This document shows positions 7,601 through 63,825 of a stretch of 64,000 nt of DNA, piece after piece. The notes beneath the pieces were generated by a model. It was not told where the DNA came from, searched no databases, and saw only the letters and a list, made by a program, of their open reading frames with translations. Positions within the stretch are counted from its first letter, which is position 1. The number at the start of each line of letters is the position of its first letter. The translations under genes and the position numbers were made by a program. The stretch lies in assembly GCA_043228905.1 (NCBI GenBank), contig JBHGNT010000016.1, forward strand, positions 16,120,001 to 16,184,000, written 5' to 3'. This DNA is from Azolla caroliniana. Taxonomy: Eukaryota; Plantae; Polypodiophyta.

Positions 7601-7643
7601 GGGAATGAATGAATACAATGATCATTTCTCTCTAAATCTCTCT

Positions 7644-7686
<43 letters not shown>

Positions 7687-14890: not shown

Positions 14891-15480
14891 TGTAAAAGAA
14901 TAGCGTGCGGAAGCAATAGAAAACCGAACACAGAAATGCAGGTTTAATGGAGAGCTTGAATATACAGAGTACGCGGGAGAGACAGATGTTGTCCGCCGGA
15001 ATAGTAATCGACGGCCAAAAGTGTAGGAATAAGAAACTATATAAGAGCATAACGTATGTAACGGTTCACGCAGGAAGCATGAACGGCTAATTAGACCTTG
15101 CATATATAAAGGGCAGAAAACCTCTTATGGAGGTGCGTGTAAATTTTGGGGAATGTAAAGAACGCCTGATAATAGAATTCTATCTTCTCTGAGTTTTTGT
15201 GTATAGTTGCGGCTAATTCAGTGTCTGTGTCTCGTATACTTAAGCGTAGTAGTACATAAGTGTAACCTGTGATAAGGATTCGGTTGTAGCCATCTTCCCT
15301 TATACGCGGAGGACTAACAGAGGTTCTCTCCTCACGCAGTACGCTTAAACCCAGTTCATTGTTCCACACCCACCTTGGGGTCTAGGTCGAAGGACTGACC
15401 ACAGACCGTGTTCCTAAGAGGCAATACTTTTGGCATGCTTGGTGATCTGTGTTTCCTCACAGACGAGCAACAACGGATGG

Positions 15481-19357: not shown

Positions 19358-19984
19358 GAATTCGAGTTCGTAATTCAGCACCGACCAAGACGCAACACGC
19401 AGTCGCGGATTTTTTGAGCAGACTTGAGAATGGAGAAACAGTACAGAAGACGACGACGATTTTCCGGACGCCGACATCTGGCGAGTAGCGACACTTGTAG
19501 AAAAAACGGAATCCACCTTCCTGGACCGACGGCTTATGGAAATGACGTACTTTTTAACTACAAGACTACCTCCACCACAATTACGCACGGACAAGCAGAA
19601 ACGACTAGCTGTCCGAAGCTGTCACTTCTGCCTTGTCGAAGGAAATTTATATCACAAAGGAAGTGACGGCATTTGGTGACGTGGAGTCCGTCAGGATGAG
19701 AAAGAAGCAGTTTTACGAGAGGCACACTGCGGCACGGCCGACGGCCATTACATGGGCAACGTGACAGCCTGCAAAGTATGGCAGGCGGGCTTATGGTGGC
19801 CAACAACGCAGAAGGACGCATCCGAGTATTGTAGAAAGTGTGATTTGTGCCAGCGGACGGGTCAGCCCGCGGAGGATGCAAGGATGCCACACCAGCCCGT
19901 ATTACCGCTAGAGCCCTTCCAAAAGTGGGGATTGGATTTTGTTGGGCCCTTCACACCAGCAGCGGCCCGTACGGGCAACAAATA

Positions 19985-22900
19985 TGTAGAAAGTAATGTG
20001 CGGAAGTAAGTATGAAGACTGAACAGAAGGAAACTCAGGTTCAATGGAGAGCTTGAGCTTACACGGTATACACGGGAGAGACAGAGAGAGTGAGAGAGAA
20101 GACACAAAAAACTATATTCAACAATAATACTCAGTCTGTACATAAGACGTGCTCAGTGAACACTTTTATACAAGTCCTAGAAGGACTAACCGAAGTATTG
20201 ATAGTACTTCAATGCTCATCAAGAGCTCCTACACTAACTCCCAAATATATTCCTCACGGAATATCTTTCCTAACGACCTCCCGGTTTACGCACTCGGCCT
20301 AACCGATCGGTCCCAACCGATCCGGTCCTCGGCTTCTTCAGCCGATCCGGCCGATGTTGAGCTTGTCTCTCAACAGTCCCCCTCAAGCTCAACTCGAGGC
20401 TCTTCGGGATCCTCGGGCTCACAGCTCCGGTTCCTCCTGGCTTCACGCCTCGCTCGCGCTCCTCGACCTGTTCGACTCTGCGCGCTTCGACCCTTCCGGT
20501 CGGCTTGTCTGCTCATGCGGTCCTTATCAGCTCTTCTGCTGTTGCGGTGTTGACTCTTCTCCTGCTGCCTTTTCTTCCACTTGGGCCTCGGTTTTCGCTC
20601 TCGTCCGAGTTGGTTGTCTCCAACTCGTCTTCGGTCTTCTCGTCCTCGATTGCGTCATCTCCCCCATGCGTGGTTGGCTTCGGTTCTCTCCTTCGGTTGC
20701 TCCCCTTCTGTCTGCTTTCGGACTTTTCCGTGGGTTCGCCCTCGGCTTCTTCAGCTGATCCGAACTCGAACTCGACAACCGAGTCTACCGACTCGGACTC
20801 GGTGTCGCGGTCTCCGCTCCTTTCCTACTACCTTGCTTGGTCGTTCGGGACTGTTCTCCCCGTCAAGGTCGGCACATCGAGGTGACGCAACCCGAGCGCA
20901 CCTGAGAATTGCCGCAACTTGTCCAGACCAAGCGGCTTTGTGAAGATGTCGGCAGTCTGCCGATTCGTCGGAACGTATTGAAGTTCAACTTCACCGGAAA
21001 GGACACGCTCACGGACGAAATGGTAGTGCAACTCAATGTGCTTGGTACGTGCGTGGAAAACGGGGTTCTTCGTGAGCTGGATGTAGCTGAGGTTGTCGCT
21101 GTAGATCATCGTTGGATCTGACACCTCCACGTGCAGGTCCTTAAGTAGCCGCTTCAACCATATGGCTTCGCATGTCACGACAACCGCTCCTCGATACTCA
21201 GTTTCGATGCTCGACAGTGCAACTGTCGGCTGCTTCTTACTACTCCACGTGATCGCGGCACTCCCGAGGGAGAACGCGTATCCAGACGTGGATCGGCGAT
21301 CGGCGGTGTTGCCAACCCAATCAGCATCGGTGTAGCCAACTAACTGTGTGGCTGCACCGGTCCGATATAGCAGTCCTCGGTCCTTAGTGCCACTTACGTA
21401 CCGCAGTACGCATTGCGCACACTGAAGGTGCTCCTCGGTAGGTCGCGCCATGAACTGACTAATCACCCTGACTGGATAACTGAGGTCGGGTCGGGTGATG
21501 GTCAAGTATATGAGGCTTCCGACAATTTGTCGGAACCTCGTCGGGTTGCATACCTTTCCCGTATCGGGACGAAGCTTGACGGTTCTGTCCAGAGGAGTCG
21601 AGACGGACTTACAGTCGGCGATCCCGAGTTTTATCAATATGCCTTCGAGGGTACGGATCACTTCGATCCTGAGGAAGTAATGAAGGTCCGCCAGATCCTT
21701 CATGTCGAACGATGCCACAAGCTGGAGCTTCACGCGGTTGATTTCACCTAGGTCAGCGCCGGTGATGACCAAGTCATCAACATATAGTAAAATACTAACC
21801 GGTCCGAGTCGACCTTTCTGGATGAACAGGGAAGAGTCCGATTTTGTCGTGACGAAGCCCATCCGACGCAGTTGTTGCGTGATCTTCGCGTTCCAGGCAC
21901 GCGGGGCTTGCTTCAGTCCGTAAAGGGACTTCTTCAGTCGGCATACTGCCGAGGAGTTCGTTCCGGAGTGAAATCCGGGGGGCTGTACCATGTACACTTG
22001 TTCCTCAAGGTCACCTTGCAGGAATGCATTCTTTACATCCATTTGATGTAGGTGCCACCCCTTGGCCGCTGCTACTGTGAGCAAAACACGGACGGTTGTC
22101 ATTTTCGCGACCGGCGCAAACGTCTCATCGTAGTCGATGCCGTGTTTCTGCGCGTAGCCCTTTGCCACCAGCTGAGCCTTGTACCGGTTGACCGAGCCAT
22201 CGGTGTTGTACTTGACCTTGTACACCCACCTACACCCGATCGGTTTTACCCCTTTTAGTGCGTCAACTAGGTCCTAGGTCTCGTTCTCCGCCAATGCGTG
22301 CATCTTTTCCTCCATCGCGGCACGCCAATTCGCATCTTTAACCGCTTCTGCGTAGCTCTCCGGTTCACGCACTTCCGCTACACGGGTCATGCACGCATAA
22401 TGATGCGCCATGTACTCGTTGTATCCGAACCGCAAAACAAGGTTCTTCTGGCGGGTAGATCAGCGTAATCTCACATCAGCTAATGTCGAGGTCTTCTCGG
22501 TCGACGCGGTCTTCATCTTTAAAAACCCGTCACCGGTTCCGTCGGAGTCGGACTCGCGTCGGTCTAACTCGTTCTTATCCGTGCCGGAATCCGACACGTT
22601 CTTCTTCCCTTTCTCTTTGCGCGTAAGCCGTCTCCTCGGCTTCTTGCGTGGGGAATGCACGGCCGAGTCTCTACTACTCGCTGGCTCTTCATCGGACTGG
22701 TCGTACCGACTTCGTCGTCCAATCGGTCCACTTAACCGGAGTGAAATCGGACTCTCTTCGCGGGTCTCGATTTCGGGCTCATTCGGAGGCATCTCGGCCT
22801 CGCTGACCTCATCGTCAGAGCTCGGATTGGGGGCAGGGTTCAGAGTTGGGGGCAGGTACCAGGATGCGGACTCGTCAAACACAACGTCGCGGTTGACACG

Positions 22901-25590
22901 CGCTTGTTTGGTGCGAGGGTTATAGCACTTATAACCCTTCTGCTCGTTCGAGTAACCGACCAAGATGCATTTCTCGGCCTTTGCGTCCAACTTCCTCCTT
23001 TTCTCCTTCGGTACATGCACATATGCAATGCTACCGAACACCCTCAAGTGTCGTAAGTTCGGCTTCGTTCCGAAATATAGCTCGTGCGCTAACACTTTGT
23101 CTCCGATCCGGTTCTGGATGTATACCGCGGTCCTTACCGCCTCGGCCCAATAGAACTTGGGCAAGCTCTTCTTCTCCAGCATTGCCTGTGCCGCTTCCAC
23201 AACTGACCGATTCTTCCTCTCGGCCACGCCGTTCTGCTCCGGCGTGTATCTACAATTGAATTCACGCCGAATTCCCATTTGCTGTAGATAACCGTTGAAT
23301 TGACCAGAAAAGTACTCTTTCCCGCCATCCGACCGCAGGCAGTTGATCTTTCGTCCTGTTTCCGTTTCCACGAACCCTTTGAGGTCCCGGAAACAGTCGA
23401 AGACTTCGCTCTTCCTCTCAATGAGGTAGATCCACGTGTGCCGCGTGTGGTCGTCGATGAAGGAGACGAAATATCGGCTCCCGCCAAGACTAACGTTTTG
23501 TGCCGGCCCCCATACATCGGAGTGTATAAGGTCGAGCTTGTTCCGCCTCCGGTTTCGCTCGTTGGGGAAGGGAAGCCGATGTTGCTTCCCGAGCTGGTAG
23601 GCTTCACAAATTTGTGCCTTTCGGCCACTAAATTTGGGCAATCTAAACACTACCTGTTTCGATTGCAGATCTTGAAGCCGCTGGTAGTTGACGTGGCCTA
23701 TCCGCTTGTGCCACAAGTCGATGTCCGACTCGTTTTTTTGTCCCTTCGCGAACATTGCGGTGCCGCCATCAGTGGAATCGAGGATGAACATCCTCCCGTC
23801 TCTGCGCCCTTGCGCAATCACACGGCCTTCTTCCTCAATGAAGCACCCGAGGTGTGTAAACCGAACCTCCATCCCTTGGTCGACGATCTGTCCGACCGAG
23901 ACCAAGTTTTTCGTGATTGTCGGAACGTGCAGTACGTTCATGAGTTTCCCTTTCTGCCCGACATGGCTAAGGGGAACTTCTCCGACATTCGCGATCGGAT
24001 GCGGAGTGTCGTCTCCAGTTGCGACTACTCCAGGTTGTATCGGTTTTTCAAGGTACGAGAACCACTCTTTATGGCTCGTCATGTGGTTTGACGTGCCAGA
24101 GTCTACGTACCACACCTCGTCTGATCTCGGGGTGGTCTGTTTCATTGAGTTTGCTTCGTGTCTCGTCACGAAGGCAGACCCTTCTCCGTCTCTCCCGGAG
24201 TCTTCGGCGTAGTGCGATCGCTGCCGACTTCCCTTGTCGGTATGTCCGGAGCCGTTTCTGGAACCGGTTCTCTCCGAATCGGCGCGCTTCTTCTAGCACT
24301 CACTTTCCCTGTGGCCTTTCTTGCCACAGTACTAGCACTCCGCGATGGCCTTCCCTTGCTGGTTCTCATCGCTTCGACTCCCCCTATTTCCGGAGGGTCC
24401 GGAGTTGCTGTCCGCATCACTTCGGTGCCTTCTTCCTTGATATCGTCGGCCGCCTCCATTGTACGCCGACTCGCCTCGTCCTCCACGTCCACGGGGCCTA
24501 TCTTCCTCCGTGTACAACATTCTGATGTCGGTGTGCGTGCTTGTAGACGCACCCGCGTGGTTCTCCTCTACTAGGAGCATCGACTGTAAGTCAAAAAAGG
24601 ACGGCGTATTCTCCCGGGTACACACAGCCGTTCGGAACACTCCGAACTTCGACGCCAAACCTCCGAGACAGATCTGGACCATCTCGCTCTCCTCGATGTT
24701 CACCTCTATGGAGGCGAGGGAGTCGAAGATATCCTTGATCTTCGAGGTATAGTCCGCCACCGACAAGTCGCGTTGTCGTAGGTTGCTCAACTCCTGTCGG
24801 AGCTGAAGCTTCCTGGCTGTGGTGCTCGCGGCGAAAATCTTCTTCAGATTTTCCCACGCACCCTTCGGCGTCTTTGCATCCCGAACATAGCTCAATAGCT
24901 GTTCGCCCACACACGACGCGAAGAAATACAATACCCTGCTCGCCGATTGCTCCCACGACGGGAAGTCTCTGTGTGTCAATTCGGGTGCCGCGTCATTAGC
25001 TCCTTCGACATAACTCCAGTAGCCGTGCCCGAGCAGGTACTAGTGCATCTTGTAGGACCAAGACGCATAGTTGGTTCTGTCGAGCTTCTCTGTTGGAAGC
25101 GAGCTCGCCATGCCTCTATCCATCGTTCTTCTTGTTCTTCTTCGTCAAGCTGTGTCGGCTACAGAGAGGTTCTCAACCTTCGCGCTCTAGTACCATGTAG
25201 AAAGTAACGTGCGGAAGCAAGTATGAAGACCGAACAGAAGGAAGGAAACTCAGGTTCAATGGAGAGCTTGAGCTTACACGGTATACGCGGGAGAGACAGA
25301 GAGAGTGAGAGAGAAGACACAAAAAACTATATTCAACAATAATACTCAGTCTGTACATAAGACGTGCTCAGTGAACACTTTTATACAAGTCCTAGAAGGA
25401 CTGACCGAAATATTGACAGTACTTCAATGCTCATCAAGAGCTCCTACACTAACTCCCAAATATATTCCTCACGGAATATCTTTCCTAACGACCTCCCGGT
25501 TTACGTACTCGGCCTAACCGATTGGTCCCAACCGATCCGGTCTTCGGCTTCTTCAGCCGATCCGGCCGACGTTGAGCTTGTCTCTCAACA
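19985..25590 (-). mobile_element. Near-complete Copia C2 inserted in the G1 integrase
   Basis: LTRs 19985-20375 and 25196-25590. TSD AAATA. PBS TGGTACTAGAGC. gag 24332-25111, PR/INT 22460-24169 (WYVDSGTSNHM, HSDVWGP), RT/RH 20828-22225 (LLYVDD, GYTDADW). A few TGG-to-TAG type stops. Confidence 0.95.
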
Positions 25591-26518
25591 AAATACATAT
25601 TGGTAGCCACGGATTACTGCACCAAATGGGTAGAAGCAAAGGCACTACGTGAAAATACGGCGACCGTCACAACCAAATTTCTTTATAAGCACATCTGGTG
25701 CCGGTTCGGCTGTCCGATTGAGCTCATCAGTGACCAGGGGAGCCACTTCCTCAATACGGTGGTTCGGGAACTAACACAACATTACGCAGTAGTCCACAAG
25801 AAGACCACGCCATACTACCCGTAGGCGAATGGATTAGCGGAATCCACGAACAAAACTTTACAGACCATTTTGAAGAAAACCGTCAACGAAAATAGAACGG
25901 ACTGGGATACCAAACTCTAGAGTGCGTTATGGGCATACAGAACTAGTTACAAAACAAGCATACAGTCAACACTGTTCCGGCTAGCATTTGGACTAGAGGC
26001 TGTGATGCCGGTCGAATTTCGGGTACCTAGTTTGCACCTTCAGGTATGGAACCGATTATCAGAAGCCAAGTCGGAGGAGGAACGGCTCTACCAACTCCTC
26101 AAACTAGGGGAAAAACGCGTCCACAGCATGGCTGTGTTGGAACAGGAACATCGATGGCATAAAGCGTTTGTTGATCGACATTGGAGCGCAAGGGAAAAGG
26201 AGTTCGCCGTGGGCCGAGCGGTGCTAGTGTTTCAAACGCGCATGGGCCATATGCCGGGGAAGTTACGTTTCTGCTAGACCGGCCCATACTGGATAATTGG
26301 AGCGAAACAGGGCACGTTCCAACTAGGAACGCTGGCTGGAGAAATAGTACGGCAAAAAGTGAATGGGTTTTGGCTCAAACCTTACCTGGGCCCTACGCCA
26401 CCTAACCCATTCACCGCCGAATGGGACAAAGCCGGAGAACACGCAGCGTAAAATGGACAGTCCCATTTGTACTATAATGTAAAAACAGGTTGTACTATAA
26501 TGAACACGCGGCACCACG

Positions 26519-29477
26519 TTGGCTCACCGCCCAATGAACCCTAAGCCACAAAAAGAAGGAAATAGAAGATTTTCTGCACAAAGCAGAAACCCATCTTCTA
26601 GCTATCAGCGCTGCCATCGCTCCTCCTCCTCACCTTCTTCCCCATCCTATCTCAAAGCTCCAACTCACCACTACTACCCGTCTGCTCTCTACGAACCTAC
26701 TCTAGCGATGCCGATCTTCATCTCTACTACCCTACGCCGATGGCTCGTGGAGAAACGCTTGGATGGTTACATTTGGGTCGCAGAAGCACCTCCGCAACCA
26801 GACGCCATGGACATCGCCAGGCAGCTTACCATCGACACGGTCACCAACTCTTCCATTCGGAGGAAGTTGGACCTATCCTCACTAGGCGAAAGACATTTCG
26901 AAATACCTCCTGCAGAGGCGCTGCAACGGTATTTTGGCCCATATTCATCCTCCGCCAAGGCCTATAGAACAAAACAGATTCCGGATCCCTTCTTCCGTGA
27001 AGTTGCCAAGTTCCTACTGGAAGTGAGCTGCGTCCATGTCAACGCATACGGGATGCCCAAGCAGAAGGCGGGCATCATTATCGACACCTTTGAAGGGCGT
27101 ACAGTCGACTGGGGGGTCATCACAAGGCCAACGTTAAGGGAAGGCTTGCATGCGTACCTAGCACGCAAAAAGCTCAGGCCAATCATCCAACAATACCTTA
27201 CGATACTGTTTCGAACCCCGAGGCCTACCAGCACCGCAGCCCAGCCAACCCACGGCCCTGCCCCGATCCGCGAAATGTAGGTTAGCGGAGGTAGCGGCCC
27301 AAGAGTGGGAGGAGGAACCCCAACCGGCCCAGCCAGGCCCAAGGGCAACACCTCCTACCGACCAACCGGACAGACGGGCGACGCAGGAGGAACAGCTGAG
27401 ACGCCCCATGGAAACAGCCCCAGAACCAGACACCGAAGCATAGCGAGAAAGCCCTAGCCCAAAACGGCGCAGATTGGACAGGAAAGATGCATGGGGGTTG
27501 GTAAAAAATGCCCCCACGGCTCCGGAGGCACCGACCGAAGGTGAAGGCTCCGCAACAGCAGAGCCGAATACCACCTTCGAAATCATCCGGGAGCCGCGGC
27601 CAATTATTACGACTCAGTCCCAACGAGGGAAAGCCGTATTGACGGCAGAAAGTGAGGTTTTGGCATATCCGGATATCCCGAATATGGCTCACGAATTCAG
27701 CGCCCTCTTGCAGTTCGGTACCTCGTTTGAGCTCATGGAGTTCCTGGCAACACAACAGGTCAAAGCCGCCCAACGAATGGCTGAGGAGCATGCGGAACGT
27801 GAGAGATAGAGCACGCGCTAACACAAACAACGGAGAGTGACGATGAGGATCGGCTGGCTAGGGTCGGCAGACAGAGGAACGCCGGGGTACGGTGAGTAGG
27901 GATGGAGATACCACCTTTAAACACGGCCCTAATCGAAGTCCATCGGGAACTGGCAAAGGTCAGCACGGGCGCCAAAGAAATGGCCATAAAAAATAAGAAT
28001 GTCTGGAAGAAGGTTAAACTGACCAAAGCCAAACTACAAAAGGCCAACGCACGCATCGCGGAGTTGGAAGCTCACGCGACTACGACGCAACACGAAACCC
28101 CGCCACCGAACCACGTTATCGACGCTCTAAAAGAAGAAATCGAGGCTCAGATAGCCATCACCTCAAAAGCAAAAAGGGCCGTGCAGCTAGCGGAATCCGA
28201 AATTGACCGGCTTCGAGCAGAACTACGCCAATCCTCCAACAGAGAAAAGGAGATACGGGCTAACGGACGGAAGGCCGTACAAACTCTTGAAGAGAAACTA
28301 GCTACGGAGGTAACCCATCACATCCGGACAAAAGACGACAACGCCCAATTACGAGAGGACGCGAAGAAATCAGAGGTGGCAATAGCGGGCCTTCGAGGCC
28401 TTATTAGAAAAAAAGAAGGTATGGTTCGATGAGCAGTTGGTGGTCGAACAAGACAGAAGGCATCAACTCGAAATCCTCCTAAACAATGAAATGGGGAGAT
28501 TAGAAGAACAACATGCAAAGGAATCCCAGCTGTGGGTGGGCCTGAAGGCCACGTATGAGGAAGCAGCAACCGTTAAACAACAGGAAATCGCGAATCTCTA
28601 GAAGTTGATGGAAGACGCACGCAACCGCTGCCAGGCCATCACGGATAACATGCGCATCCTTCTCCAAACCAATCGGGAAAGGTTCACTGCGCAATTGAAA
28701 ACGACGCTGGACAAAGGATGGAAGGCGTGGGCAACCCAAGCAGCAGAATTGCACGCGTATCGTGCGGATTGGGAGAACCGACGGAAAGACGACCGAGGGT
28801 TTTATAAGCTAAATGAGGAGAGCATTGCGACCGTACGGGAGGACCTAGCGCAAGACTATCGTGCGCTAGCAGACCAACACTCCGAAGAACTCGCACAACT
28901 CCTAGATGATTTTGGTGAAAGTCAGGAGGAGCTTTTTCACCAGATCACAGAAGCCGGCAACATGGACACAAACGAGGAACCCAGCGGGACACCAATTCCG
29001 GTCACAACCGAAGAAGAGGAACCTCAGGCCCGATCACCAAGGATGACAACAGGGGAGAATAGCGGGGACGAACGAGCGGAGTTCCCCACAGGACCAGACA
29101 ACGAAACCATTGCCCAACAAGAGGTCCAGCCGCACCAACCCACACCATCTTCAGAAAACACGGAAAATAGTGCGGACCAGGCGGAATCCTCGCCCCACGC
29201 CCAGGGACACACAAAAACGGCCAACACCGCGGAGGACGTAACAATAGAGGCGGAGCTGCAGCCGACGGCAAGCACGCCAACGGCGGAGCCCAGCCCACTA
29301 ACTCAAGAAGAGCCCACTGTACCCGGACCACCCGCACACAGCGAAGGCGACTCCGGGAGAAACCAGGCCGACCAAGCAGAGGAGCCGCACCACGATGCAC
29401 CTACGGGCCCTACATCAACTCTGGAGGAGGACACAACAACAGAGCCGAACATCCGGGCCCATTTGGAAGAAGATTAA
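26519..29477 (+). pseudogene. G1 additional ORF downstream of pol (~950 codons, interrupted)
   Basis: Consecutive sense ORFs 26519-27280, 27474-27809, 27902-28432 and 28605-29477. A globular N-terminal part (EGRTVDWG...YLTILF), a long coiled coil, then an acidic Pro/Thr tail ending 47 bp before the 3' LTR. Confidence 0.75.
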
Positions 29478-32096
29478 CGGGATGGGTCCAATGTGCAAAG
29501 GCATTGTCCCACAGACGTGCCAAGTGTTGTCCGCCGTAATAGTAACCGACGGCCAAAAGCGTAGGAGTAAGAAACTATATAAGAGCATAACGTATGTAAC
29601 GGTTCACGCAGGAAGCGTGAACGGCTAATTAGACCCTGCATATATAAAGGGCAGGAAACCTCTTATGGAGGTGCATGTAAATTTTGTGGAATGTAAAGAA
29701 CACCTGATAATAGAATTCTATCTTCTCTGAGTTTCTATGTATAGCTACGGCTAATTCAGTGTTTGTGTCTCGTATACTTAAGCGTAGTAGTACATAAGTG
29801 TAACCTATGATAACGATTCGGTTGTAGCCGTCTTCCCTTATACGTGGAGGACTTACAAAGGTTCTCTCCTCACATAGTACGCTTAAACCCAATTCGTTGT
29901 TCCACACCCACCTTGGGGTCTAGGTCGAAGGACTGACCACGGACCGTGTTCCTAAGAGGCAACAACAGATAGAGAGAGAGAATGCACACAAAGCTTAATT
30001 CAAAAATAATACTTAGTCTATACATAGGATGTGCTCAGTAAGCATTTTTATACAAGTCCATATAGACTGATAGAACTATTGACATGTATTTCAATGCTCA
30101 TTAATGAGCTCTACACTAACTCCCAAAATATATTTCTACGCGTAATATCTTTCCAACGGCCTCACGGTTTACGCACCGCTATGGCCTCTCATTGTGTACT
30201 GGTTTGCGTAATAGTTTACGCACCCGGTTTACGCACTGGTTTGGCCTAACCGATTGATCCCAACCGATCCGGTTTTGGGCTTGCACAGCTGATCCGACCA
30301 ATGTTGAGCTTGTCTCTCAACACTCCCCCTCAAGCTCAACATTGAGGTTCCATCGGCTCTTCAGGATGTACACTCCGGTTCCTTCTGGCTTCACTCCTTG
30401 CTCGCGCTCCTCGACCTATTCGATTCCGCGCACCTCGACCCTTCCGGTTGGCTTGCGTGCTCATGCGGCCCTTCTCAACTCCGTTGTTGTCGCGGTGTTG
30501 GCACTTCTTCTGCTGCCTTCTCTTCTGCTTGGCCCTCAGTTGATTCGATGTATTCGAATCAAGCATCTGAACAGACTCGGCTTCCTCTGATCAGTTTTTG
30601 CTTTCGTCCAAGTTGGCTGTCTCCAACTCATCTTCGGTCTTCTCGCCCTTGATGGTTTCGTCTCCCTCACGCTTGGTTGGCTTCGGCTCTTTCTTTCGAC
30701 TAGTCCCCTTATATTCACTTTCAGACTCCTCCGCGGATTCTCCGTCACCTTCTTCAGCCGATCCAAAATCGAATTCTTCATCTGATTCGTCGCAGTCTCT
30801 CCCCCTTCCGTGGTCATTCAGGACGTCTCTCCCCTCAATATCGGCACGTCGAGGTGACGCAACCCAAGCGCACTCGAGCATTGCCGCAACTTGTCCAGAC
30901 CAAGAGGCTTGGTGAAGATGTCGGCGGTTTGCCGATCCGTCGGAACATATTGAAGTTCGACTTCACCGGAGAGGACTCGCTCACGGACGAAATGGTAGTG
31001 CACCTCAATGTGCTTGGTACGGGCATGGAAGATGGGGTTCTTTGCTAGCTGGATGTTGTTGAGGTTGTCGCAGTAGATTGTTGTTGGATCGGATACCTCC
31101 AGATGCAGATCCTTAAGTAGCCGCTTCAACCATATGGCTTTGCATGTTGCGATAGCCGCTCCTCTATACTCGGCTTCGGTGCTCAACAATGCAACTGTCG
31201 GCTGCTTCTTGCTACTCCACGCGATCGCGACACTCCCAAGAGAGAACGCAAAACCGGACGTGGATCAGCGATCGGTGACATTGCCGGCCCAGTCGGCATT
31301 GGTGTAGCCAAAAAACTACGGGGTTGTACTGGTTCGATATAGTAGCCCCCAGTCCTTAGTGCCACTTACGTACCGCAGTACGCGTTGCGCACATTGAAGG
31401 TGCTCCTTGGTAGGTTGGGCCATGAACTGACTAATCACCTCGACAGGGTAGCTGAGATTTGGTCGGGTGATGGTCAAGTATATAAGGCTTTCGACTATCT
31501 GTCGGAACCTCGTCGGGTCGCATACCTTTCCGGAATCGGGGCGAAGCTTGATGGTTCTATCCAAAGGAGTCGAGACGGACTTATAGTTGGCCATCCCGAA
31601 TTTGACGAGGATACTTAACAAGTAATGCCGTTGGCTGATCAGTATGCCTTCGGGGGTGCGGATCACTTCGATCTCGAGGAAGTAGTGAAGGTCCCCCAGA
31701 TCCTTCATGTCAAATGATTCTGCAAGTTGGAGCTTCACGCGGTCAATATCACCTAGGTCGGTGCCGGTGATGACCAAGTCATCAACATAAAGTAAAATGC
31801 TAGCTGGCCCGAGTCGACCTTTCTAGATCAATAGTGAGGAGTCCAATTTTGACGTTGCAAAGCCCATCCGATGCAATCGTTGTGTGATCTTCGCGTTCCA
31901 GGCATGTGGGGCTTGCTTTAGTCTATAAAGGGACTTCTTCAACCGGCACACCGCCGAGGTGTTTGTTTCAGAGTGAAATCCAAGGGGCTGTACCATGTAC
32001 ACCTGTTCCTCAAGCTCACCTTGCAGGAATACATTCTTGACATCCATCTGATGTAAGTCCCACACCTTTGCCGCAGCAACTGCGAGCAAAACGCGG

Positions 32097-32674
32097 TGTC
32101 GTGAAGAATTTCGGCCAGAGGCGGAAACCGGGAAACATTGGCTACATCGGCGGGTGCAGCGTGTGTACGCACCCATGTACATTTAGTGTGAATATCGAGG
32201 GCGCATTTATGGCGCCCAAGAGTAGTCAAGTCGGGGCAGACGATCCCATGTAAGGCGGGATTTGTTCCACATTGTAACACATCCCTTTCCTTGTTCTATA
32301 AAAGGAAGGGAACGCCCTTTGTGAAAGGGTTGCCCATTTTGCATTCGAGGGTATACCGTTAGGTTTAGAGTTAGGTTCTTCTTCTTCTTCTTCTTCTTAT
32401 GTGTGTTCGCTTAGGGTTTGCTTTTGGTTCAGCCTCCTGTGCAAGACCCCGCTCGGCGCGACGAGCCCATGAGCTCCCCGACGGCGGCTTGGCAGCAGAC
32501 GACTACTGTAACCTACCTCAGTCCGGCTCGAAGCCGGGAATGTATTCTTCATATATATACATACATATACGTTTACGTTTGTCAGTGTATATTCGCGTCG
32601 CTGTTGGCGTCGGGTGCTTACCCTCTCCTGCGTTTTCTGTACATAAGGCGCGAGTCGGGTTGAGCTGTGTGTAC

Positions 32675-32728
<54 letters not shown>

Positions 32729-35700
32729 CGGTGTTAAGCTCTCTCTCTCTCTCTCCCTTCGGTTGCTTCCGGTGTGTTTCTGGGATGCCCCGGAAACAGT
32801 GAAGCACGACTTCCTACGCTCCATCGCTCTCTAGTCCAAGACCCCCGTGGTCCCGCCTTTCTCCACGCACGCACGTAACAACGCGACATATTTGGTGACC
32901 CCGACGTGAAAGGTGGCAAGGGAGGATGGAGTCGGAAGACGACAACCTTGCGGAGATGGTGGCTGAAGTGGTGTTGGAGTCGGCACGAGTGGTGATGAGG
33001 CGAGAAGCAGCGCAACATGCAGTTGAGCGAGTGGTCGAAAGAGTCGGTCGTTTCAACGGGGACAAAGTCCCATCTTACTTGGAAGCCGACAACGCGGAAA
33101 TGGAGGAGTGTGGCGTAGACGAGGCGTTGAGGCTGGAGTTCTTCTGCCAGGTCGTAGCTGTCCGGATGCATGCGGAAGTAAAGGAGCTCCGTGAGGCTCA
33201 TAGTTTGTGGGAGGCCTTCGAAGAGGCGCTCCTGAAGGCATACGGAGGACGGCGGAAGAGCCGGGGACGGCACGACTTCGACCAGTGGGTAGCATCGACA
33301 AAGACCCATCGGGGCGCGACGAAGGCGTTCCGAGAGTTCGAGCGACGGCTTGCTTGGCTCCCAGAGCGGGAACAAGGTTTGGTGGGGGCGGACAAAGTCC
33401 TTTTGTTCGTCAGGTCGATCGACCGAGCGGAACGGGAAGTCATCAGGATTGCGCTCGAAGACGATGATGGAGCGAATGGGCTTACGGAGGACTGGTCGAA
33501 GGTCGGAAGGGTGTGCCAAAGGCTAGATGATGAGCGAGCCGAGAAGGCTAAGAGGAAGGTACGCGACGGCGTGCCATCATAGCGGGAAGAGGCCGAACGG
33601 CAGAGGGAGTCGGCAAGGGTCGGCGTTGGGGCCAGGATTGCGGAGGCGTACGCAGCTCTCGAGGCGATGATCGAGAAAGAGGCGAGACGGACTTGCCCCA
33701 CGCGACGACGGAAGATCGGTATGACGGTACCACGAGAGAGGGTGCGGAACGAAACGCCCTCTCGACTTGCAGAGATAGAACGGCCAAGGACGAGGCCGAG
33801 ATACTGATCGCGGAATCGGAACGTTGGGACCAGTGGTTTCGGGCGTGTCAGCCCAAGATCCCGGTCATTGGAGAAGCAAGCCCAGACAGGGCTTGCGTGA
33901 TCGATAAGAAGACGACAGCCGACCACGAAGACTCAGTGGCTACGGACAAGGGCGTAAAACGGACGGGCGATTCTTTGTGTCTTCCCACACTTGCTCCCGA
34001 GATGATGGCAGTCGGGCATGAGTGCCCACGCGAGTCCTAAGCGGAGGAAGGCGGCGGAAGGCCAAGAATCATCGGCGAGATGATACGGGGAAGGAGCGGA
34101 CAAAAGCCCACGAACCCAATTCCGGAGAACTGGGCATTCGGGCCCGTATGCCCATGTAAAACCGAGGAGATGGATGGCGGTACTGAGGAGTCCTGGCACG
34201 ATGCCAGTGAAGTCGGATGGGAAACGGCCTACGAGGAGGCCGAGGACAGACGCGGCACGAGGAGATCGGCGTTTCGATTCGTATGGAGCAGAATCCGGTC
34301 GTGGATGGTTCGATCCGGGCCGGATTCGGCATGAAGGTGCCGATACGGGAGAGGGTGCGGGACGAGCCGCCCTCTTTTACATGGGGAGAAAGACCGACCG
34401 GGCGAAGGTCGAGAGAAGGAAGGACGAACGGACCCGGACGAGAATCGGGCGGAGCGGACTCCCGGATGACGATTCTGGGAGGGAGGAAGAGAGCGTGCCT
34501 ACGAAGAGGCCGAGGACACGGTACGTCGGTACCATGGGAGAGGGTGCGGAGTAAACCGCCCTCTCGGCATGCGGAAAAGGACGACCCGCGACAGGGTCGG
34601 GAAGACGGATCGAAGGCCTGCGGAGGATCCTTCACACCGGTTCTAGAGACTTCGGCAGTCGGCAACGCGGTCGACGTAAGACCAAGATACTAACGGTGAC
34701 GGCAAGCTGACGAAGGCAATGGGCGTAAGGAAGTCCAGTCCTATGGGATCCCCACACTTAATCGGAGACTCCGGCTGTTCGGCCAACGTGGCAACGTAAG
34801 ACCGAGGGAGAAGGAAGCTGGCGGCGGGAAACGGGACCCGGCTACGCGGAAGACATGAGGAGAGTCCGGGAGGGACTCAAACAAAAGTCACCCAAATTAC
34901 GGCAGGCATAGAAACGGAGTCCGGTCCTATGGGACCCTCACACCGTTCCGGAGACTCCGGCTGTTCGGCCAACGTGGCAACGTAAGACCGAGGGAGAAGG
35001 ATGGTGGCGGTAGGGAACGGGACCCGACAACATGAGGTTTCGAAAGGAGCCGGTAGGGGCAAACTCGGGGAGGTGTGTCAGGCCGGAAAGGCACACCTTG
35101 GACAAAACAAGAGTCTCGCAAGTGGCCATCGTGGGCCGGATCAAAGCGTGACTACGGGACGGTGTTCGGCGCGGGCGGGGCCGAACGAAGGAAGCGGAAG
35201 ACGGCACAAGGGAGGTGCTGGGAACGAGGTGACAAGTGCCTAGTAGACTGCACAAGGTCGGAGTCAGGGGATGGCAAGAGAGGCCAGAGGAGGATCCTCC
35301 ACACTCGCTTCGTAGATCTCGGTAGCTCCGTCGAAGTAGCGAAGACTTACATGGCAAGCCCGGGGTGACAAGCTGGTGGGGCGAGGGGACGACGGCAAGC
35401 GGGAGACTCAGGACCTATCGCGGCAGCACGAAGACGGGAAGGGCCAAGCGGGCTACTATGGGGTGTTCCTCGGATGCAAAGGACACCGGTATGCGGGTGA
35501 GCGGCGATGCACGATCTGGCCAAAAAGGGAGCCGACAAGGCGTGCAATGAACCGGAGTACGGCATAGGCGGTGCCAAACAACGGACGAGGATATGTGGCA
35601 CACGGAGGTGCCAGAGCGGAAAGGCGAGCGTAGAGATAGGTTGCGCGGTTCGGAGGTATCGCGGAGAAGACTGGAAAGGGATCCCCACACCGTTCCGGAG

Positions 35701-36914
35701 ACCATGGCGGTTCGAGCCGACGCGGCGATGTAAGACCATGGAGAAGGAAGGTGGCGGCGAGAGGACGAGGGCAACGCGAAATGACAAGGGACGACAATCA
35801 GGACGACGCGAACGATTAACAGAGGCCAAGCAGGCCACTACGGGTATGCCTCAAGCGGAGGACATCGGGCATACGACGAAAGCGGGGTGTTCATACGACC
35901 GAACAAGGGCCAACGGAAGTACGCGTACTACGAAGATCGCAGCTGAGGGCCCATCGACGGGTCGAACGAGCCTATGGGGAGGCGAGCGCGAAGGAAGACT
36001 CGAAATCGTCGGGTCAAACCGGCAGCGAACCAGGATGCGGATCACGGAAGACCGGTTTCTCACCGGCCAAAATCTCTCACCGTTCAACCGGACTTGGCAC
36101 ATACCGGTGGATGTGCAGTTAGGTGGGGGCGGATGTCGTGAAGAATTTCGGCCAGAGGCGGAAACCGGGAAACATTGGCTACATCAGCGGGTGCAGCGTG
36201 TGTACGCACCCATGTACATTTAGTGTGAATATCGAGGGCGCCTTTATGGTGCCGAAGAGTAGTCAAGTCGGGGCAGACGATCCCATGTAAGGCGGGATTT
36301 GTCCCACATTGTAACGCATCCCTTTCCTTGTTCTATACAAGGAAGGGAACGCCCTTTGTGAAAGGGTTGCCCATTTTGCATTCGAGGGTATACCGTTAGG
36401 TTTAGAGTTAGGTTCTTCTTCTTCTTCTTCTTCTTCTTCTGCGTGTTCGCTTAGGGTTTGCTTTTGGTTCGGCCTCCTGTGCAAGACCCCACTCGGCGCG
36501 ACGAGCCCGTGAGCTCCCCGACAGCGGCTTGGCAGCAGACGACTACTGTAACCTACCTCAGTCCGGCTCGAAGCCGGGAATGTATTCTTCATATATATAC
36601 ATACATATACGTTTACGTTTGTCTGTGTATATTTGCGTCGCTGTGGACGTTGGGTGCTTACCCTCTCCTGCGTTTTCTGTACATAAGGCGCGAGTCGGGT
36701 TGAGCTGTGTGTACGAGTGTGTGGTTGTGTGTGTGTGTGTGTGTGTGCGTGAGTCGGTGTTAAGCTCTCTCTCTCTCTCTCCCTTCAGTTGCTTTCGGTG
36801 TGTTTCTGGGATGCCCCGGAAACAGTGAAGCACGACTTCCTACGCTCCATCGCTCTCTAGTCCAAGACCCCCGTGGTCCCGCCTTTTTCCACGCACGAGC
36901 GTAACAACGCGACA
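32097..36914 (+). mobile_element. Non-autonomous Gypsy G2n (gag-like ORF only)
   Basis: LTRs 32097-32888 and 36134-36914 (TGTCGTG...CGCGACA). 4-bp TSD GCGG. PBS TGGTGACCCCGACGTGAA at 32893-32910. PPT AGGTGGGGGCGGA. LTRs contain (TTC)n, (GT)n and (CT)n. Confidence 0.93.
32926..33582 (+). CDS. G2n gag-like protein, homologous to the G2 gag N-terminus
   Basis: DKVLLFVRSID...LEDDDGANGLTEDWSKVGRVCQRLD aligns with G2 DKTLYFLKAVD...LEDDTQANGLVADWIAVKRACNRLD. Confidence 0.85.
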   Translation: MESEDDNLAEMVAEVVLESARVVMRREAAQHAVERVVERVGRFNGDKVPSYLEADNAEMEECGVDEALRLEFFCQVVAVRMHAEVKELREAHSLWEAFEEALLKAYGGRRKSRGRHDFDQWVASTKTHRGATKAFREFERRLAWLPEREQGLVGADKVLLFVRSIDRAEREVIRIALEDDDGANGLTEDWSKVGRVCQRLDDERAEKAKRKVRDGVPS

Positions 36915-37820
36915 GCGGACGGTTGTCGTCTTTGCGACCAATGCAAACGTCTCATCGTAGTCGATGCCGTGTTGCTGTGCATAGCCTTTCGCTACTAACC
37001 AAGCCTTGCATCGGTTGACCGCGCCGTCAGTGTTGTACTTGAACTTGTACACCCACCTACATCCGATCGGATTCACACCTTTTGGTGTGTCAACCAGGTC
37101 CCAGGTTTCATTTTCCGTCAATGTGCGCATCTCTTCCTCCATTGCGACATGCCAATTTGCGTCCTTCGCCGCTTCTGCGTAGCTCTTTGGCTCATTCACT
37201 TCCGCTACACGCGTCACGTACGCATAGTGATGCGCCATTTACTCGTTGTATTCGAACCGCAAAACAGGGTTATTTTGGCAGGTTGATCGACGTAACTGCT
37301 CATTAGCCGATGTTGAGGCCTTTTTCACTGACGCAGACTTCGCTTTCGAAGGCCCGTCATCGTTCATCTTGGAGTCGTATTCGCGTCGATCCGACTCGCC
37401 CTTATCCATGCCATACTCCGGTGTCGTGAAGATTCGTCGCTACGCGCGGATCGTGAGTCGGAACCGCCGGGGTTCTGGACCAGAAGGATTTAGAGTCGAT
37501 ACAAGCTTTGGCGAGAAAGTACTTAAGATAGATTGGGAAAGAGAGAAGATGAGATTGCAGAATTGATTTGAAAACGAATTTCTTCCTCTTAATTTTCATA
37601 AAAAAAAAACCATCTTTTTCTCCTCCCCCTTCCCTCTTTTATAGATGCTCTCATGCATATGATGCATGTGAGGGTACAAGACATGCATAAATTGCATGTT
37701 TGCCATTTGGCGCTTAAGTATTACATGTGGTGCATGCTAACCATGTCACTCATTTTAGCACTCATGGATGAGAATTTACATGTAAAAGTACAATGATAGA
37801 AATATAATTTCAACTAAATA

Positions 37821-37886
37821 CGATGGCTTAATGGTAAGCCATTTGACTCCTAACTTGGAGGTGCAAGGTTCGAATCCATACTTGCC
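37821..37886 (+). ncRNA. tRNA-like Pol III module in the G2 3' LTR
   Basis: A-box TGGCTTAATGG at 37824-37834 within a GGCTTA/TAAGCC stem. B-box GGTTCGAATCC at 37867-37877. T5 run near 37913. Confidence 0.65.
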
Positions 37887-38496
37887 CTCCTTGTATATGT
37901 AAATATGTATATATTTTTATATATTTATTTTATCTAGTCGCCGGTTCGCCGGATGCCGCCGCCGGATACCGACGCCGGATACCGGTGCCGCATGCCGCCG
38001 CCGGATTGCGGTCGGATGCCGTCGGATCACCGGCTCCATCGCCGGTCCGGTTTTGGTTGGCCAAAACCCTTTTCGAGTAGCTAACCACCTCCACTCTAAG
38101 TTCAAGTTACCTTGAACTGTCTATGCTCCACACATAGACACAAAGATAATATCTTTTGCTCCACCTTATATATGATGAGAGCCGTATTTGTCGTGCCTAT
38201 GTGGGATATCTCACAATTTTCTCTTTTCTTTTCACAAAATTTATACCCTCATATCTTGACATTTAGTTGTTCATTTCTCGTGTAATAAAGTGCATTCGAA
38301 ACCTTCATCATTTTGTACTTAGATATTAAAAATGTTATCTTCACAATTATTGTATTACGTGATTCATACTCGATTTTGTACGTTTTATGGGATTTTCACA
38401 CTATTGCCGAAAATCTTCACGACATCCTCCCCCACCAAACCGCACGTCCTCCGGTACGTGCCAAGAAGAGAAGAAGTGAGATTTCGGCTACGATGA

Positions 38497-41400
38497 TCAA
38501 TTAGATTCCTCCATGACTTCATTTTCATCCGGCGTATTATGTTCATCGTCGAGGTAATCGAGGTCAGGATCCTTGTCTTGTCCTTTCTTGAAAAGCTTTA
38601 CTCTTTTTCCCGCAATGGGTACGGCCAACCTTGATCCGTCTAGTTCCGCAAGGTGGTATGTGGCATTATCGTTGGCACTTGTCACCACATACGGCCCGAA
38701 CCATCTTCTTGCGAACTTCCTTGTTGTACTATGTTGATCGTTAAGGGTGCTGTCGTAAACCAAAACCCAATCCCCTTCTTCAATCTTCTTGGGACAAAGT
38801 CGATGCGTGTTGTCGAACCGAACTTTGTTCTTTACTCGGGCTGCCTTCATCATCTTTCGCGCTTTTTCTAAATCTTCAGGTCTTCTTTCAAGTTGCCTTA
38901 TCCGCGCCGCTAATAACTCTTCTCGGCTCATCTCGTTCTCCCACGGTATCGCTACCCATGAGGCGATCGTCCTTTCGATGGGCATAATCGGCTTTTGTCC
39001 ATAAATAAGCTCCGTCGGCATATACCCTGTCACCGAGCTATGTGTCGTTCTATCGGCCCACAAGGCATAGGGTAATAGTCGTGGCCAATTCCCGACTCGA
39101 CCGTTGCATGCCCGTACGATGGCTTTAACGATAAGTCCATGCCCTCGCTCGATCTTCCCATTTGCTTCCGGATTGTAGGCAGTCATGAGGGAGAGCTTCA
39201 CGCCTAGTCTTTCGAAGAGCTCCGTCGCTTCGTGCGCATCCAACTCCCCTCGGTCGGCCACTATCTTCCCTACACATCCATATCGGCAAACAACATCTTC
39301 AAGTAAAAATTTACAAACGGCAAAAATCGTCTTATTTGTCAAGGCTCATCCTTCCACTTGATTTGTCAAGTCTTCCCTTGCGAGCGCTAAGTACTTCATT
39401 TGTCCCACTCCCATTGGCATCGAGACCAAATCCACCATCCATTTGAAGTGAATGGTGAGTGGGTATGTCGGCTTTAACTCATCACGATGACGTATATTTG
39501 AATATACTTGGCAAGTTTCGCATGTGGACACGAAATGGAGTACATCTTTGTACATGCTTGGCCACCAGTACTTCTCCTTCAACTTTTCGAACGTCGCCCA
39601 TGTTCCTCTATGACCTGCCCAAGCACTCTCGTGGAATTCGGTCATCAGCGTCTCTTGCTCTTCTTTCTTTACCACCACTCGACGTGGTATTCCTGTCCTT
39701 CTTTTTGGATGTCGCCAAAGGAATCCTCCCTTCAAGAAGTATCGATAAGCTTTCTTCCGGATTCGTAGGGACTCCTCCTTTGTCAACGAAGCATCGGTCG
39801 TCAATGTTCTTAGGAATCTACCGATGAGTAACCACTCTCCTTCGTACTCGTTCTCGTTGAAGGCGTGGAGGGTTTGCGTGTCCTGGTCTTCCGCCGACAA
39901 TCGAGCCATCTTGAAGAAGTCGAGGGCGACATCTTCATCTTCCGAAACCATGTTACTTTCATTTGAAAATCTTGCCCTCGACAGCATGTCAGCCATGGCG
40001 TTCTTCTTCCCTGCGATGTGACGGATCTCTGGGTTTAAAGACTTGATGTAGGTGATCCACCTTAGCATAGCAAGATCTGGGGTCGCACATCCCGAGACCA
40101 TTCCGAGAATTGGGAGACAATCTGTCTCTATTATCACTTCTGACCCGATCAGGTAATCTTTGTCCGTCTTCACTGCCGACACAATACCCCAAAGTTCCCG
40201 CTTGACTTGGGCATATCTTTGTTGCCGTTCGCTGAGAACCATTGCTCCGAACCGGACGGCATATCGCGCATTATCTTCACCTTCTTGATTGATGACCCAC
40301 CCGATTCCGGTTGGGCTCGTATCTACGGTCACGTAAATTGGTTTCCCTTCAGCATAGTCGGCCTTCCTTAATGCCGGAGCTTCAAGAAGCAGTTTCTTTA
40401 ATCTTCGCATCGCCTCTGTGTGCTCGTCTCGCCATTCGAACTTTATTCTTTTCTTTAGTAGTCCATATAACGGTTCGGCGACATGAGCGTAGTGAGGAAT
40501 CCATATATGATAAAACGCGCACGCTCCAAGGAACCTTCGAACCTCCGTTTGGTTTTCGCATTCTTTTTTCATGTCTTGGATTGCGTTCACTTTGGATGGC
40601 GAGGGCTTCCGGCCGTATGCTCCACACAAGTGACCTACCACCAAGATCTCCGGTTTGCCCGAATGCGGATTTTTCTCCCGAAAATGTCAAATTCGCATCT
40701 TCGAGCCTTTGAAGCACCTTCTCGCAATCTTTCATATGATCCGCAACGAACTTTCTACAACCTTCCTTATCTTTCGATTCATCTTTCTCCTCATCTGAAC
40801 ATCCTTTTATCGGAATATCATCCAAGAATGGCATCGTGATGTCCGGAATGCAATCCTTCAAGACTTTATTCATGGCATTCACCATATGAGCCACCGAGTT
40901 CGTTGCGCCTTGGGGTAAGGTACACATCCGCACAAGCCCGATCGGAGTCCTCATGGTTGTAATGTCCCGACTGTCGATCGCCAATTGGAATTGGTCATAT
41001 CCGGAGTAGAGATCGCCAATGGAGTAGATGGACCGGCCCGCAAACGCTTCGGCAAATTCGTCCACGCTCGGACCGATTCCGGCATTTCGAATTGTCACCT
41101 TGTTGACGGGTTGAAGATCTTGGATGAATCGCAATGATCCATTCTTTTTCGGCACCGTGAACCACCTATTGGAATAAGGAGCATTCGACGGTTCTAGAAT
41201 TCCCATACTCACCTTCTCCTTTAAGAGCTCGATCAACTTCAGAAGGTGTGCTCTCGGAACCGGTATCGGTTTCAAATTCCAAGGCACATGAGGCACCGTG
41301 AAGATCACCATTGGCTCTATAACCTTTGGGTCGGCGCATCCAATTTCTCGTGGGAAGAATGCGAAAGCCTTCCCATGTCTCTCAAGCATATCACGAAACA

Positions 41401-41992
41401 TTCGCTCCTCTTCAGGGAGAAGGAAATCCTCCTTTCCAACTCGTAGCTTCCCCTTCGTCTCTTTGGTGAAGTCATTACCTATCTTCTTCGGATCTCTTAC
41501 GTTTCGATCGTTAGGGACTTCCTTCATCTTTTGCCAGCTATCTTCCGGTAGCGGAACCGCAACTGGCTTGATCTTCTTATCCACTGTTTTATATTTCGTG
41601 TTGATGTCAGCTTCATTCATCGAGATGCCACGACGGTATTCATCGATGATAGTGTACATGTTGACGGAGTTAACCGAAATCACACGTTGGTTGTGAAGAT
41701 AGCTCAAGTCCACGACGTCCTTGATTTCGCCGATGGTGTCGTTAAATGAGGCTTCTTCCATAATATGAGTCACGAACTCCCCTTCTTCTATTATGTTCTC
41801 TTCTTTCAGCATCTTCTCGAATTCTTGTATCTGGTGCTTGTGCTTCTTGTCGGGTAGTACTAGTTTACATGCGCCACTAGGTGTGACACATGTTGCTTCT
41901 CCTTGCAATCCACGCACTCTTCTTTCTTGTGGGGTCTTGTGATTGCTCGGACTATTTGTGCCCCATGCTTCAATAGTCCACTCTAAAAATCC
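38497..41992 (-). CDS. G2 pol (RT-RNaseH-integrase) in the -1 frame, with one 1-nt insertion (~40655) and one stop (39346)
   Basis: FIQDLQPVN, DLYSGYDQ, PFLDDIPIKG, VTVDTS, GHRG...CETCQ, VADRGE, YNPEANGKIER, WFGPYVV. Confidence 0.9.
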
Positions 41993-44187: not shown

Positions 44188-44647
44188 GTATAAATCTCGA
44201 CTTGATCCTTCCTACCGCCTCTTTCACGTCGGGTTCACCACTTTATTATGTCGTGAAGATCCGTCACTACGCGCGGATCGTGAGGCGGAACCGCCGGGGT
44301 TCTGGACCAGAAGGATTTAGAGTCGATACAAGCTTTGGCGAGAAAGTACTTAAGATAGATTGGGAAAGAGAGAAGATGAGATTACACAATTGATTTGAAA
44401 AGGAATTTCTTCCTCTTAATTTTCATAAAAAAAAACCATCTTTTTCTCCTCCCCCTTCCCTCTTTTATAGATGCTCTCATGCATATGATGCATGTGAGGG
44501 TACAAGACATGCATAAATTGCATGTTTGCCATTTGGCGCTTAAGTATTACATGTGGTGCATGCTAACCATGTCACTCATTTTAGCACTCATGGATGAGAA
44601 TTTACATGTAAAAGTACAATGATAGAAATATAATTTCAACTAAATAC

Positions 44648-44712
44648 CATGGCTTAATGGTAAGCTATTTAACTCCTAACTTGGAGGTGCAAGGTTCGAA
44701 TCCATACTTGCC
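44648..44712 (+). ncRNA. tRNA-like Pol III module in the G2 5' LTR
   Basis: TGGCTTAATGG at 44650-44660 and GGTTCGAATCC at 44693-44703. Confidence 0.65.

Positions 44713-63789: not shown

Positions 63790-63825
<36 letters not shown>

Follow-up and report, generated by a model that had tools for sequence, protein, structure and literature searches.

The window, as the whole stretch of DNA analysed here is called, comprises 64,000 nt of Azolla caroliniana (GCA_043228905.1, contig JBHGNT010000016.1, positions 16,120,001-16,184,000, forward strand), and the element under study, G1, occupies 14987-29964 on its + strand. G1 is bounded by two 440-bp LTRs, at 14987-15426 and 29525-29964 (both +), with the target-site duplication (TSD) ACAGA on both sides. 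The LTRs differ at 27 positions, and this divergence of 6% identifies G1 as an old, mutated copy. In the window copy the 5' LTR ends in CAATA; in the G1-family contigs of public runs, position 15425 is C in more than 99% of the depth, which gives CAACA and restores the terminal CA. A 4-nt spacer, CTTT (15427-15430, +), separates this LTR from a 14-nt primer-binding site (PBS) of the Arg(UCU) type at 15431-15444 (+). In the family depth of this site, 15436 changes from T to C in about 89-96%, 15439 stays T (C in 0-3.5%) and 15440 shows no change among the family changes listed.

The same strand carries gag (15418-17202; ORF list and domain search), which is broken by stops and frameshifts and holds a zf-CCHC domain, followed by RT and RNase H (17717-19357, domain search), by an integrase (19437-26451) split by a nested Copia, and by a broken extra sense ORF (26504-29477) whose stop codon ends 4 nt 5' of the motif described below. 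The 3' LTR then starts with TGTTG and is followed by the TSD. The zf-CCHC, RT, RNase H and integrase pieces, the last on both sides of the insert, together with the PBS-like TGGCATGCTTGGTG that begins at 15431, bear out the + orientation assigned to G1 in the preliminary description. The nested Copia lies at 19985-25590 on the - strand (TSD AAATA) and is related to the Copia that holds G1: G1 was itself inserted inside a Copia LTR, its flank 14891-14986 matching 46251-46346 and the sequence from 29967 onward matching that from 46342 onward.

Two LTRs, TG...CA ends, a TSD, the order RT-RH-INT and an RVT_1-type RT are Ty3/gypsy features, and G1 shares LTRs, a tRNA PBS after the 5' LTR (here the 14-nt Arg-type site beyond a 4-nt spacer), the gag-PR-RT-RH-IN order and a 5-bp TSD with the canonical Ty3 of S. 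cerevisiae as the available text of PMC5371799 presents it. The Tat clade (Ogre, Retand, TatIII), to which the preliminary description had likened G1, also has an Arg-type 5' PBS, a 5-bp TSD and an extra ORF, but is defined by an aRH domain (available text of PMC6317226). No RNase_H/RVT_3 Pfam match that would indicate an aRH was found in the pol ORFs of G1, nor was one found among the 120 homologues listed, and only about 100 codons lie between its RH and the integrase zinc finger; Tat membership was rejected for lack of this domain. Athila and other OTA non-chromoviruses resemble G1 in having no aRH, a 5-bp TSD and a long 3' extra ORF, and no chromodomain was found; the PBSs of Athila are mostly of the tRNA-Asp, -Asn or -Ala type, whereas that of G1 is Arg-type (Neumann et al. 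2019, available text of PMC6317226). Phygy and Selgy, which are short, with 4-bp TSDs, Trp or Ala PBSs and no extra ORF, were rejected because G1 has a 5-bp TSD, a 3-kb extra ORF and an Arg-type PBS. In an RT-RH tree of 33 of the 120 homologues, which has a very long outgroup branch, weak deep nodes and no labelled reference elements, G1 groups with unnamed environmental sequences beside Riccia and Adiantum proteins, outside a 100%-supported seed-plant clade of Pinus and angiosperm proteins. G1 is probably best called an Athila-like, aRH-less non-chromovirus of non-seed plants.

A tRNA-Arg-like motif at the polypurine-tract site

One feature of canonical replication, a polypurine tract (PPT) abutting the 3' LTR, is missing from G1. 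The 15 nt 5' of its 3' LTR are 60% purine, compared with 73-87% and G-rich tracts in the same stretch of five other elements of the window (E32, G37, G50, G58 and the nested Copia), which confirms the absence reported in the preliminary description. The nearest purine run measures 9 nt and ends 52 nt upstream, within the extra ORF; as a PPT it was rejected, being coding and misfitting the TSD-defined LTR end. Whether other copies have a normal PPT was tested in G1-family contigs from four runs, and none was seen. The loose ends listed for these contigs at 29525 (8 contigs in X3, with an agreement of 0.4, as random insertion flanks would give) include no purine-rich alternative.

The sequence before the 3' LTR is a 41-nt motif, at 29482-29522, that ends 2 nt before the LTR and consists of a T-arm piece, a 4-bp hairpin and 17 nt ending in CCA. 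Specifically, 29482-29491 (+) aligns with the T-arm 5' strand and a piece of the T-loop (tRNA positions 49-58); 29493-29504 (+) is an inserted hairpin, GTGC-AAAG-GCAT, placed between tRNA positions 58 and 59 and seen in the family contigs; and the 17-mer GTCCCACAGACGTGCCA (29506-29522, +) is a sense copy of the 3' 18 nt of tRNA-Arg minus one base. The spacer AG (29523-29524, +) lies between the CCA and the 3' LTR. Seen on the minus strand, 29506-29522 is a putative inverted PBS, and the distance of such sites from the LTR, 2-5 nt, lies within the 1-6 nt range of PBS geometry. An inverted tRNA-3'-end site had been proposed in the preliminary description, and its core stands, as a 17-mer ending in CCA that is found family- and lineage-wide; its extent has grown to 41 nt, starting at 29482, and the GGCAT/GTGCC hairpin suggested there is replaced by the conserved hairpin GTGC/GCAY.

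The motif is present a second time in the window, in element A (5032-7881, +; TSD GTCAT), a short LTR element of 2.85 kb whose LTRs are unrelated to those of G1 and in which a domain search found no pol. Its 5' PBS, TGGCGACCAC, lies at 5522-5531 (+), and its copy of the motif (7336-7376, +) ends in CCG and is followed by the 5-nt spacer TATTG and by the 3' LTR at 7382. A 15-nt core of the motif is exact at these two window sites, both of which abut a 3' LTR, and the window scan yielded one more match, with 2 mismatches, in a Copia; by chance 0.17 matches are expected and none of 100 shuffles reaches 3, a chance count that is partly circular as the pattern was built from its two exact sites. 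The interior of element A is repetitive and purine-rich. Its LTR family occurs in metagenome loci with both PBS types (L011 and L056 versus L060), possibly a primer switch within one family.

The tRNA that the motif resembles is tRNA-Arg(UCU). Patterns of the motif minus its hairpin matched two viral and three prokaryote loci, and all five are tRNA genes called by ARAGORN (two Arg-UCU, one Arg-UCG, one Glu and one called Asp-ATC). One of the tRNA-Arg(UCU) genes, in L124, is a bacterial reference and not the host's; its 3' end reads TTGTGGGTTCGA GTCCCACCGGGCGTGCCA, and the motif of locus L008 reads TTGTGGGTTCGA, a 13-nt insert and then GTCCCACGGGCGTGCCA. In every form of the motif one tRNA base is missing and the insert falls between positions 58 and 59. 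The 3' end of the plant nuclear tRNA-Arg(UCU) is presumably nearly the same as that of the bacterial reference. Without its hairpin, the motif matches the bacterial tRNA at 17 of 18 positions with one gap, and the unbroken 3' match is 11 nt in L008 and 7 nt in G1; taken strictly, the match of at least 12 nt to a host tRNA that the preliminary description anticipated is thus not found, the longest unbroken one being 11 nt and the reference bacterial. The G1 site can form 17 bp with the L124 tRNA, including one bulge and two G-T wobbles, or, if the hairpin is looped out, about 27 bp. Calculated with RNA parameters, a rough proxy for tRNA on DNA, the duplex energies are -35.0 kcal/mol for L008 and -30.1 kcal/mol for G1.

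Of the Arg/Lys-type assignment made initially, the Arg half agrees with these 17 bp and -30.1 kcal/mol, whereas the Lys half fails: the G1 site has 4 terminal nt in common with two tRNA-Lys genes of L043 (-19.5 and -19.8 kcal/mol), and tRNA-Lys was rejected as a model on these 4 nt and roughly -20 kcal/mol, as against 17 bp with Arg. In 121 metagenome loci ARAGORN called these two Lys genes but not a single Arg gene, and the window contains no tRNA gene. A plant tRNA-Arg sequence was not found in the literature text, the supplements of PMC5389709 or the rows listed from PMC8750796. The two tRNA-Lys-like genes (L043:1062-1137 and 2756-2828) sit on one 3.2-kb repeat contig together with the motif; their sequences appear degenerate, and the pair could represent the heads of SINEs.

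Conservation and spread of the motif

The G1 family was sampled as contigs of four public runs (1017, 835, 784 and 152 contigs) with at least 80% likeness. The junction of motif and 3' LTR is covered by family contigs of all four runs, and the motif is kept. Position 29515 changes from A to G in 98-100% of the family depth, 29490 from A to G in 92-95% and 29492 from T to C in 93-96%, and the family is nearer to the tRNA than the window copy. Among the changes listed, two others in the 17-mer reach 5%: C>T at 29512 (3-15%) and G>A at 29514 (2-12%). The hairpin keeps its stem; its loop is free to vary at 29497 and 29499, and T or C is read at 29504. Within the same runs, the motif side of the LTR has about 0.5-1.0 times the depth of the PBS side; depth does not equal copy number, and this ratio is only a hint that most full-length family copies carry the motif. 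A chance resemblance, or private PPT decay in the G1 copy, would be conceivable for an element so old and mutated, with LTRs 6% diverged. The probability of this explanation is negligible: it is refuted by the four-run family contigs, which keep the motif in a form closer to the tRNA than that of G1, and by the metagenome set, in which the motif recurs across many families.

That set comes from a scan of metagenome contigs in which the 15-nt core was sought together with the hairpin, giving at least 122 matches in at least 121 loci; being selected by the motif itself, it says nothing on relatives with a PPT. Among the matches listed, 111 (110 loci) come from one series of public assemblies, whose loci may represent one host or close relatives, and the other 11, of different origin, resemble chance matches in microbial DNA. 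Viral contigs scanned for the motif gave 0 matches. The base that completes CCA, the T-arm piece and the LTR-like start lay outside the scan pattern and so provide independent tests. Among the matches listed, CCA is complete in 111 of 111 from the series compared with 4 of the 11 others. The T-arm piece, scored as at least 7 of 9 nt against tRNA positions 49-57, is present in 103 of 108 series matches listed (three more were too short), compared with 0 of the 11 others and 230 of 20000 random positions. An LTR-like start, called by motif and not by TSD, follows the CCA after 2-5 nt in 103 of the 111 series matches listed (2 nt in 79, 4 nt in 10 and 5 nt in 14; 8 nt in one; none, or a contig too short, in 7).

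The LTRs 3' of the motif are of many kinds among the loci listed, and that of G1 has no blastn match among them at 1e-10. Of 110 loci searched, about 40 of which had 300-nt flanks only, 19 have a homologue of the G1 extra ORF (31-43% identity) 5' of the motif and in the same orientation. L075 combines such a homologue with an RT-RH at 72% identity to G1, L014 and L039 hold the integrase end, and the order in L039 is integrase end, extra ORF, motif, LTR, PBS and gag. Because homologues of the extra ORF, RT-RH and integrase share its loci, the motif can be taken, from sequence, to mark the lineage of G1 and its short derivatives. The extra ORFs of motif-bearing loci are intact and encode 915-1109 aa (for instance L014:71-3397, L054:172-3330 and L016:30-2774). 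Their N-terminal 250 aa and a block near the C-terminus are conserved, and the middle is long and coiled-coil-like. No Pfam family scores above cut-off, and the Atlas gives weak leads only, to ATHILA (PF03078) and Transposase_32 clusters (scores 0.83-0.84).

Could the motif be what is left of a tRNA fragment captured long ago, or a signal bound by Gag, integrase or the extra ORF product, with a non-specific RNase H remnant acting as primer? Drift of the T-loop part in some families and an extra ORF without known domain would suit such an origin, which is nevertheless quite improbable, given that CCA persists in 111 of 111 matches listed, at 2-5 nt from the LTR, amid divergent flanks, LTRs and extra ORFs (the last 30-57% identical).

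Priming of the plus strand

The data establish that a PPT is absent and that a conserved motif with a match to the tRNA-Arg(UCU) 3' end stands in its position, which raises the question of what primes the plus strand. The best explanation, which has about an even chance of being correct, is that plus-strand synthesis starts from the CCA end of a host tRNA-Arg annealed to minus-strand DNA. Because the motif has the tRNA's own polarity in RNA, a tRNA could bind it only on minus-strand DNA, and there its CCA would point into U3, exactly at the required plus-strand start. After first-strand transfer, RT would copy the motif and RNase H would clear the RNA. The minus DNA could then fold back on itself, forming a stem (GTGGG/CCCAC) and the hairpin, and this folding would help to shed RNA remnants and expose an 11-nt site at which packaged tRNA-Arg would anneal. 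The duplex may subsequently lengthen to 17 bp and gain as many as 10 bp more towards the T-arm; the hairpin would then be looped out across from position 58, where the modified base m1A58 permits no Watson-Crick pairing. Starting at the CCA, RT would copy across the 2-5 nt spacer and on through the LTR, after which RNase H would remove the tRNA and integrase would trim the spacer to the terminal CA, as at the PBS end. Each end of the linear DNA would then be defined by the CCA of a tRNA.

Several of the above observations argue for priming by tRNA-Arg in trans. Specifically, the position is fixed on CCA, with an LTR-like start 2-5 nt on; the T-arm piece accompanies it in 103 of 108 matches listed, though outside the pattern; and all five hairpin-less pattern matches are tRNA genes, three of them Arg. 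Against it stand the short unbroken match (11 nt, and 7 in G1) with a tRNA base bulged in every family, the susceptibility of any DNA-bound tRNA to RNase H, and the single-strand folding of isolated 53-mers of the two window copies, which is no better than that of shuffles (z -0.40 to 0.54).

Sequence alone cannot separate this reading from a primer in cis, because the sense RNA is equally complementary to the site. RNase H, whose cut at the junction of tRNA and DNA takes off the first primer, might likewise cut the element's own RNA after its tRNA-like CCA, with T-stem and hairpin refolding to shield the fragment and a 10-bp hybrid resembling a tRNA on a 10-nt PBS, so that the PPT would be replaced without a second host tRNA. 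This is possible, though on balance doubtful. It would account for the retention of both T-stem strands and of the T-loop pattern, the missing base would let the T-stem stack directly on the 10-bp hybrid, the 5' PBSs of short families mostly match 10 nt only and, in the available text of PMC5371799, the tRNA is taken off by Ty3 RT at the junction or close to it. It is burdened by the 13-nt insert within the T-loop, which spoils the tRNA fold, and by the need to release the hybrid RNA before folding.

The base changes bear on both readings. A tally of 107 matches listed, which leaves out two that were mis-parsed, two cut short and the 11 outside the series, gives a conservation of 90-98% at tRNA positions 49-53, 77-93% at 54-57, 65% at 58 and 54% at 59. 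Position 57 is a purine in 105 of the 107, and the outer hairpin pair is G-C in 93, with a variable loop. The changes G49A (in the G1 family), G51A (7 loci), T55C and G57A are wobble-compatible with a tRNA on minus DNA, which supports priming in trans; T54A (16 loci), C56T (12) and G49T (8) mismatch the tRNA and count against it. G51A is fixed in one family without compensation and would break the RNA stem by a mid-stem A-C mismatch, but not the DNA-side one. This change and G49A, which would weaken the RNA stem and leave wobbles on the DNA side, speak against the cis primer. Overall, the pattern leans toward tRNA on DNA and does not decide, because the scan pattern fixed the 3' 16 nt, so that reverse changes, 3'-strand variation and T-stem compensation are invisible outside the G1 family; a relaxed search of the loci added only two motif copies, too few for a compensating-change test.

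The two ends of the elements offer a further comparison. The spacer base next to the LTR is G at 98 of 104 3' junctions and C at the 5' junctions listed, and the spacers measure 2-5 nt and 1-6 nt, respectively. Read on opposite strands, the ends appear as mirror images (CA, a C-starting spacer, TGG), a symmetry that supports tRNA priming at both. Among contigs in which an Arg-type PBS precedes the motif, position 10 of the PBS covaries with the corresponding motif base in 14 of 14 (C/G in 9, T/A in 5, with T/A in G1). These contigs are collapsed repeats from about six related families and C-to-T decay may explain part of the pattern, so the covariation is no more than suggestive; it is what priming in trans would predict if both ends track one tRNA form, and serves no obvious need of a cis primer.

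The same covariation, with the 10-bp complementarity of motif and PBS, would also be expected if the motif paired with the 5' PBS in genomic RNA, for strand transfer, packaging or a translation switch, while another signal primed the plus strand. Such pairing is an improbable explanation. Element A and L039 have the PBS TGGCGACCAC, which pairs over only 4 nt, and yet keep the Arg(UCU) motif; 5'-PBS pairing is therefore not what keeps it, and circularisation of the RNA through the 5' PBS, an option raised in the preliminary description, does not hold as a general rule. The 5' and 3' spacers are moreover unequal in length and unpaired, and the T-arm piece, the hairpin and the missing PPT would be left unexplained. 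Retention of the Arg(UCU) motif beside another 5' PBS fits priming by tRNA-Arg in trans. The evolutionary scenario that follows, whose chances are roughly evenly balanced, is that a Ty3/gypsy lineage of non-seed plants dropped the PPT and that host tRNAs prime both of its strands, the plus strand at a structured, bipartite, inverted tRNA-Arg site on minus-strand DNA, sometimes with a different tRNA for each end, both DNA ends being set by a tRNA CCA.

Known systems and other elements of the window

The available text of PMC5371799 presents PPT priming of plus strands as the general rule among retroviruses and LTR retrotransposons, and that of PMC6317226 reports no PPT replacement in Athila or OTA elements. 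The bipartite or second PBSs of Ty3 and Drosophila Gypsy are, as in G1, tRNA-related sites near the 3' end that involve the T-arm; they are complementary to the tRNA on genomic RNA, whereas the G1 site has tRNA polarity and a CCA and could bind only on minus DNA. These sites serve the first primer or a tRNA bridge, and the PPT is still present (available text of PMC5371799 and PMC1635307). The TRIMs Helenus and Cassandra likewise hold tRNA- or 5S-derived sequence inside an LTR element, but within the LTR, as a Pol III promoter, and with PBS and PPT present; their author found no priming role for it (available text of PMC10886601). The literature searched, from which subscription papers and Repbase reports lay outside scope, contained no matching description of a second or inverted PBS, of PPT-less elements or of tRNA-primed plus strands. 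Either leading mechanism would be new, be it tRNA priming on DNA or reuse of the RNase H primer-removal cut on a tRNA mimic. A high-copy lineage with a tRNA copy at the PPT site would imply that the plus-strand priming step can be swapped. In addition, annotation that relies on PPTs would overlook this lineage or give it the wrong orientation; the motif provides a sequence marker for it, as well as a second site that tRNA fragments could target.

The window holds further elements. Two related gypsy elements at 32093-36914 and 37422-45330 carry long terminal inverted repeats within the LTRs (TGTCGTGAAGAT...ATCTTCACGACA for the second element); their PBSs are separated from the LTR by 4 and 8 nt, and their PPTs are normal and G-rich. 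Another gypsy, at 58323-63929, has a clear PPT, and no TGG-type PBS was seen after its BLAST-delimited 5' LTR; it may be self-priming, or the LTR boundary may be off. Finally, two overlapping frames at 617-3852 encode domains of the B-lectin and Ser/Thr kinase types and represent a lectin receptor-like kinase gene.
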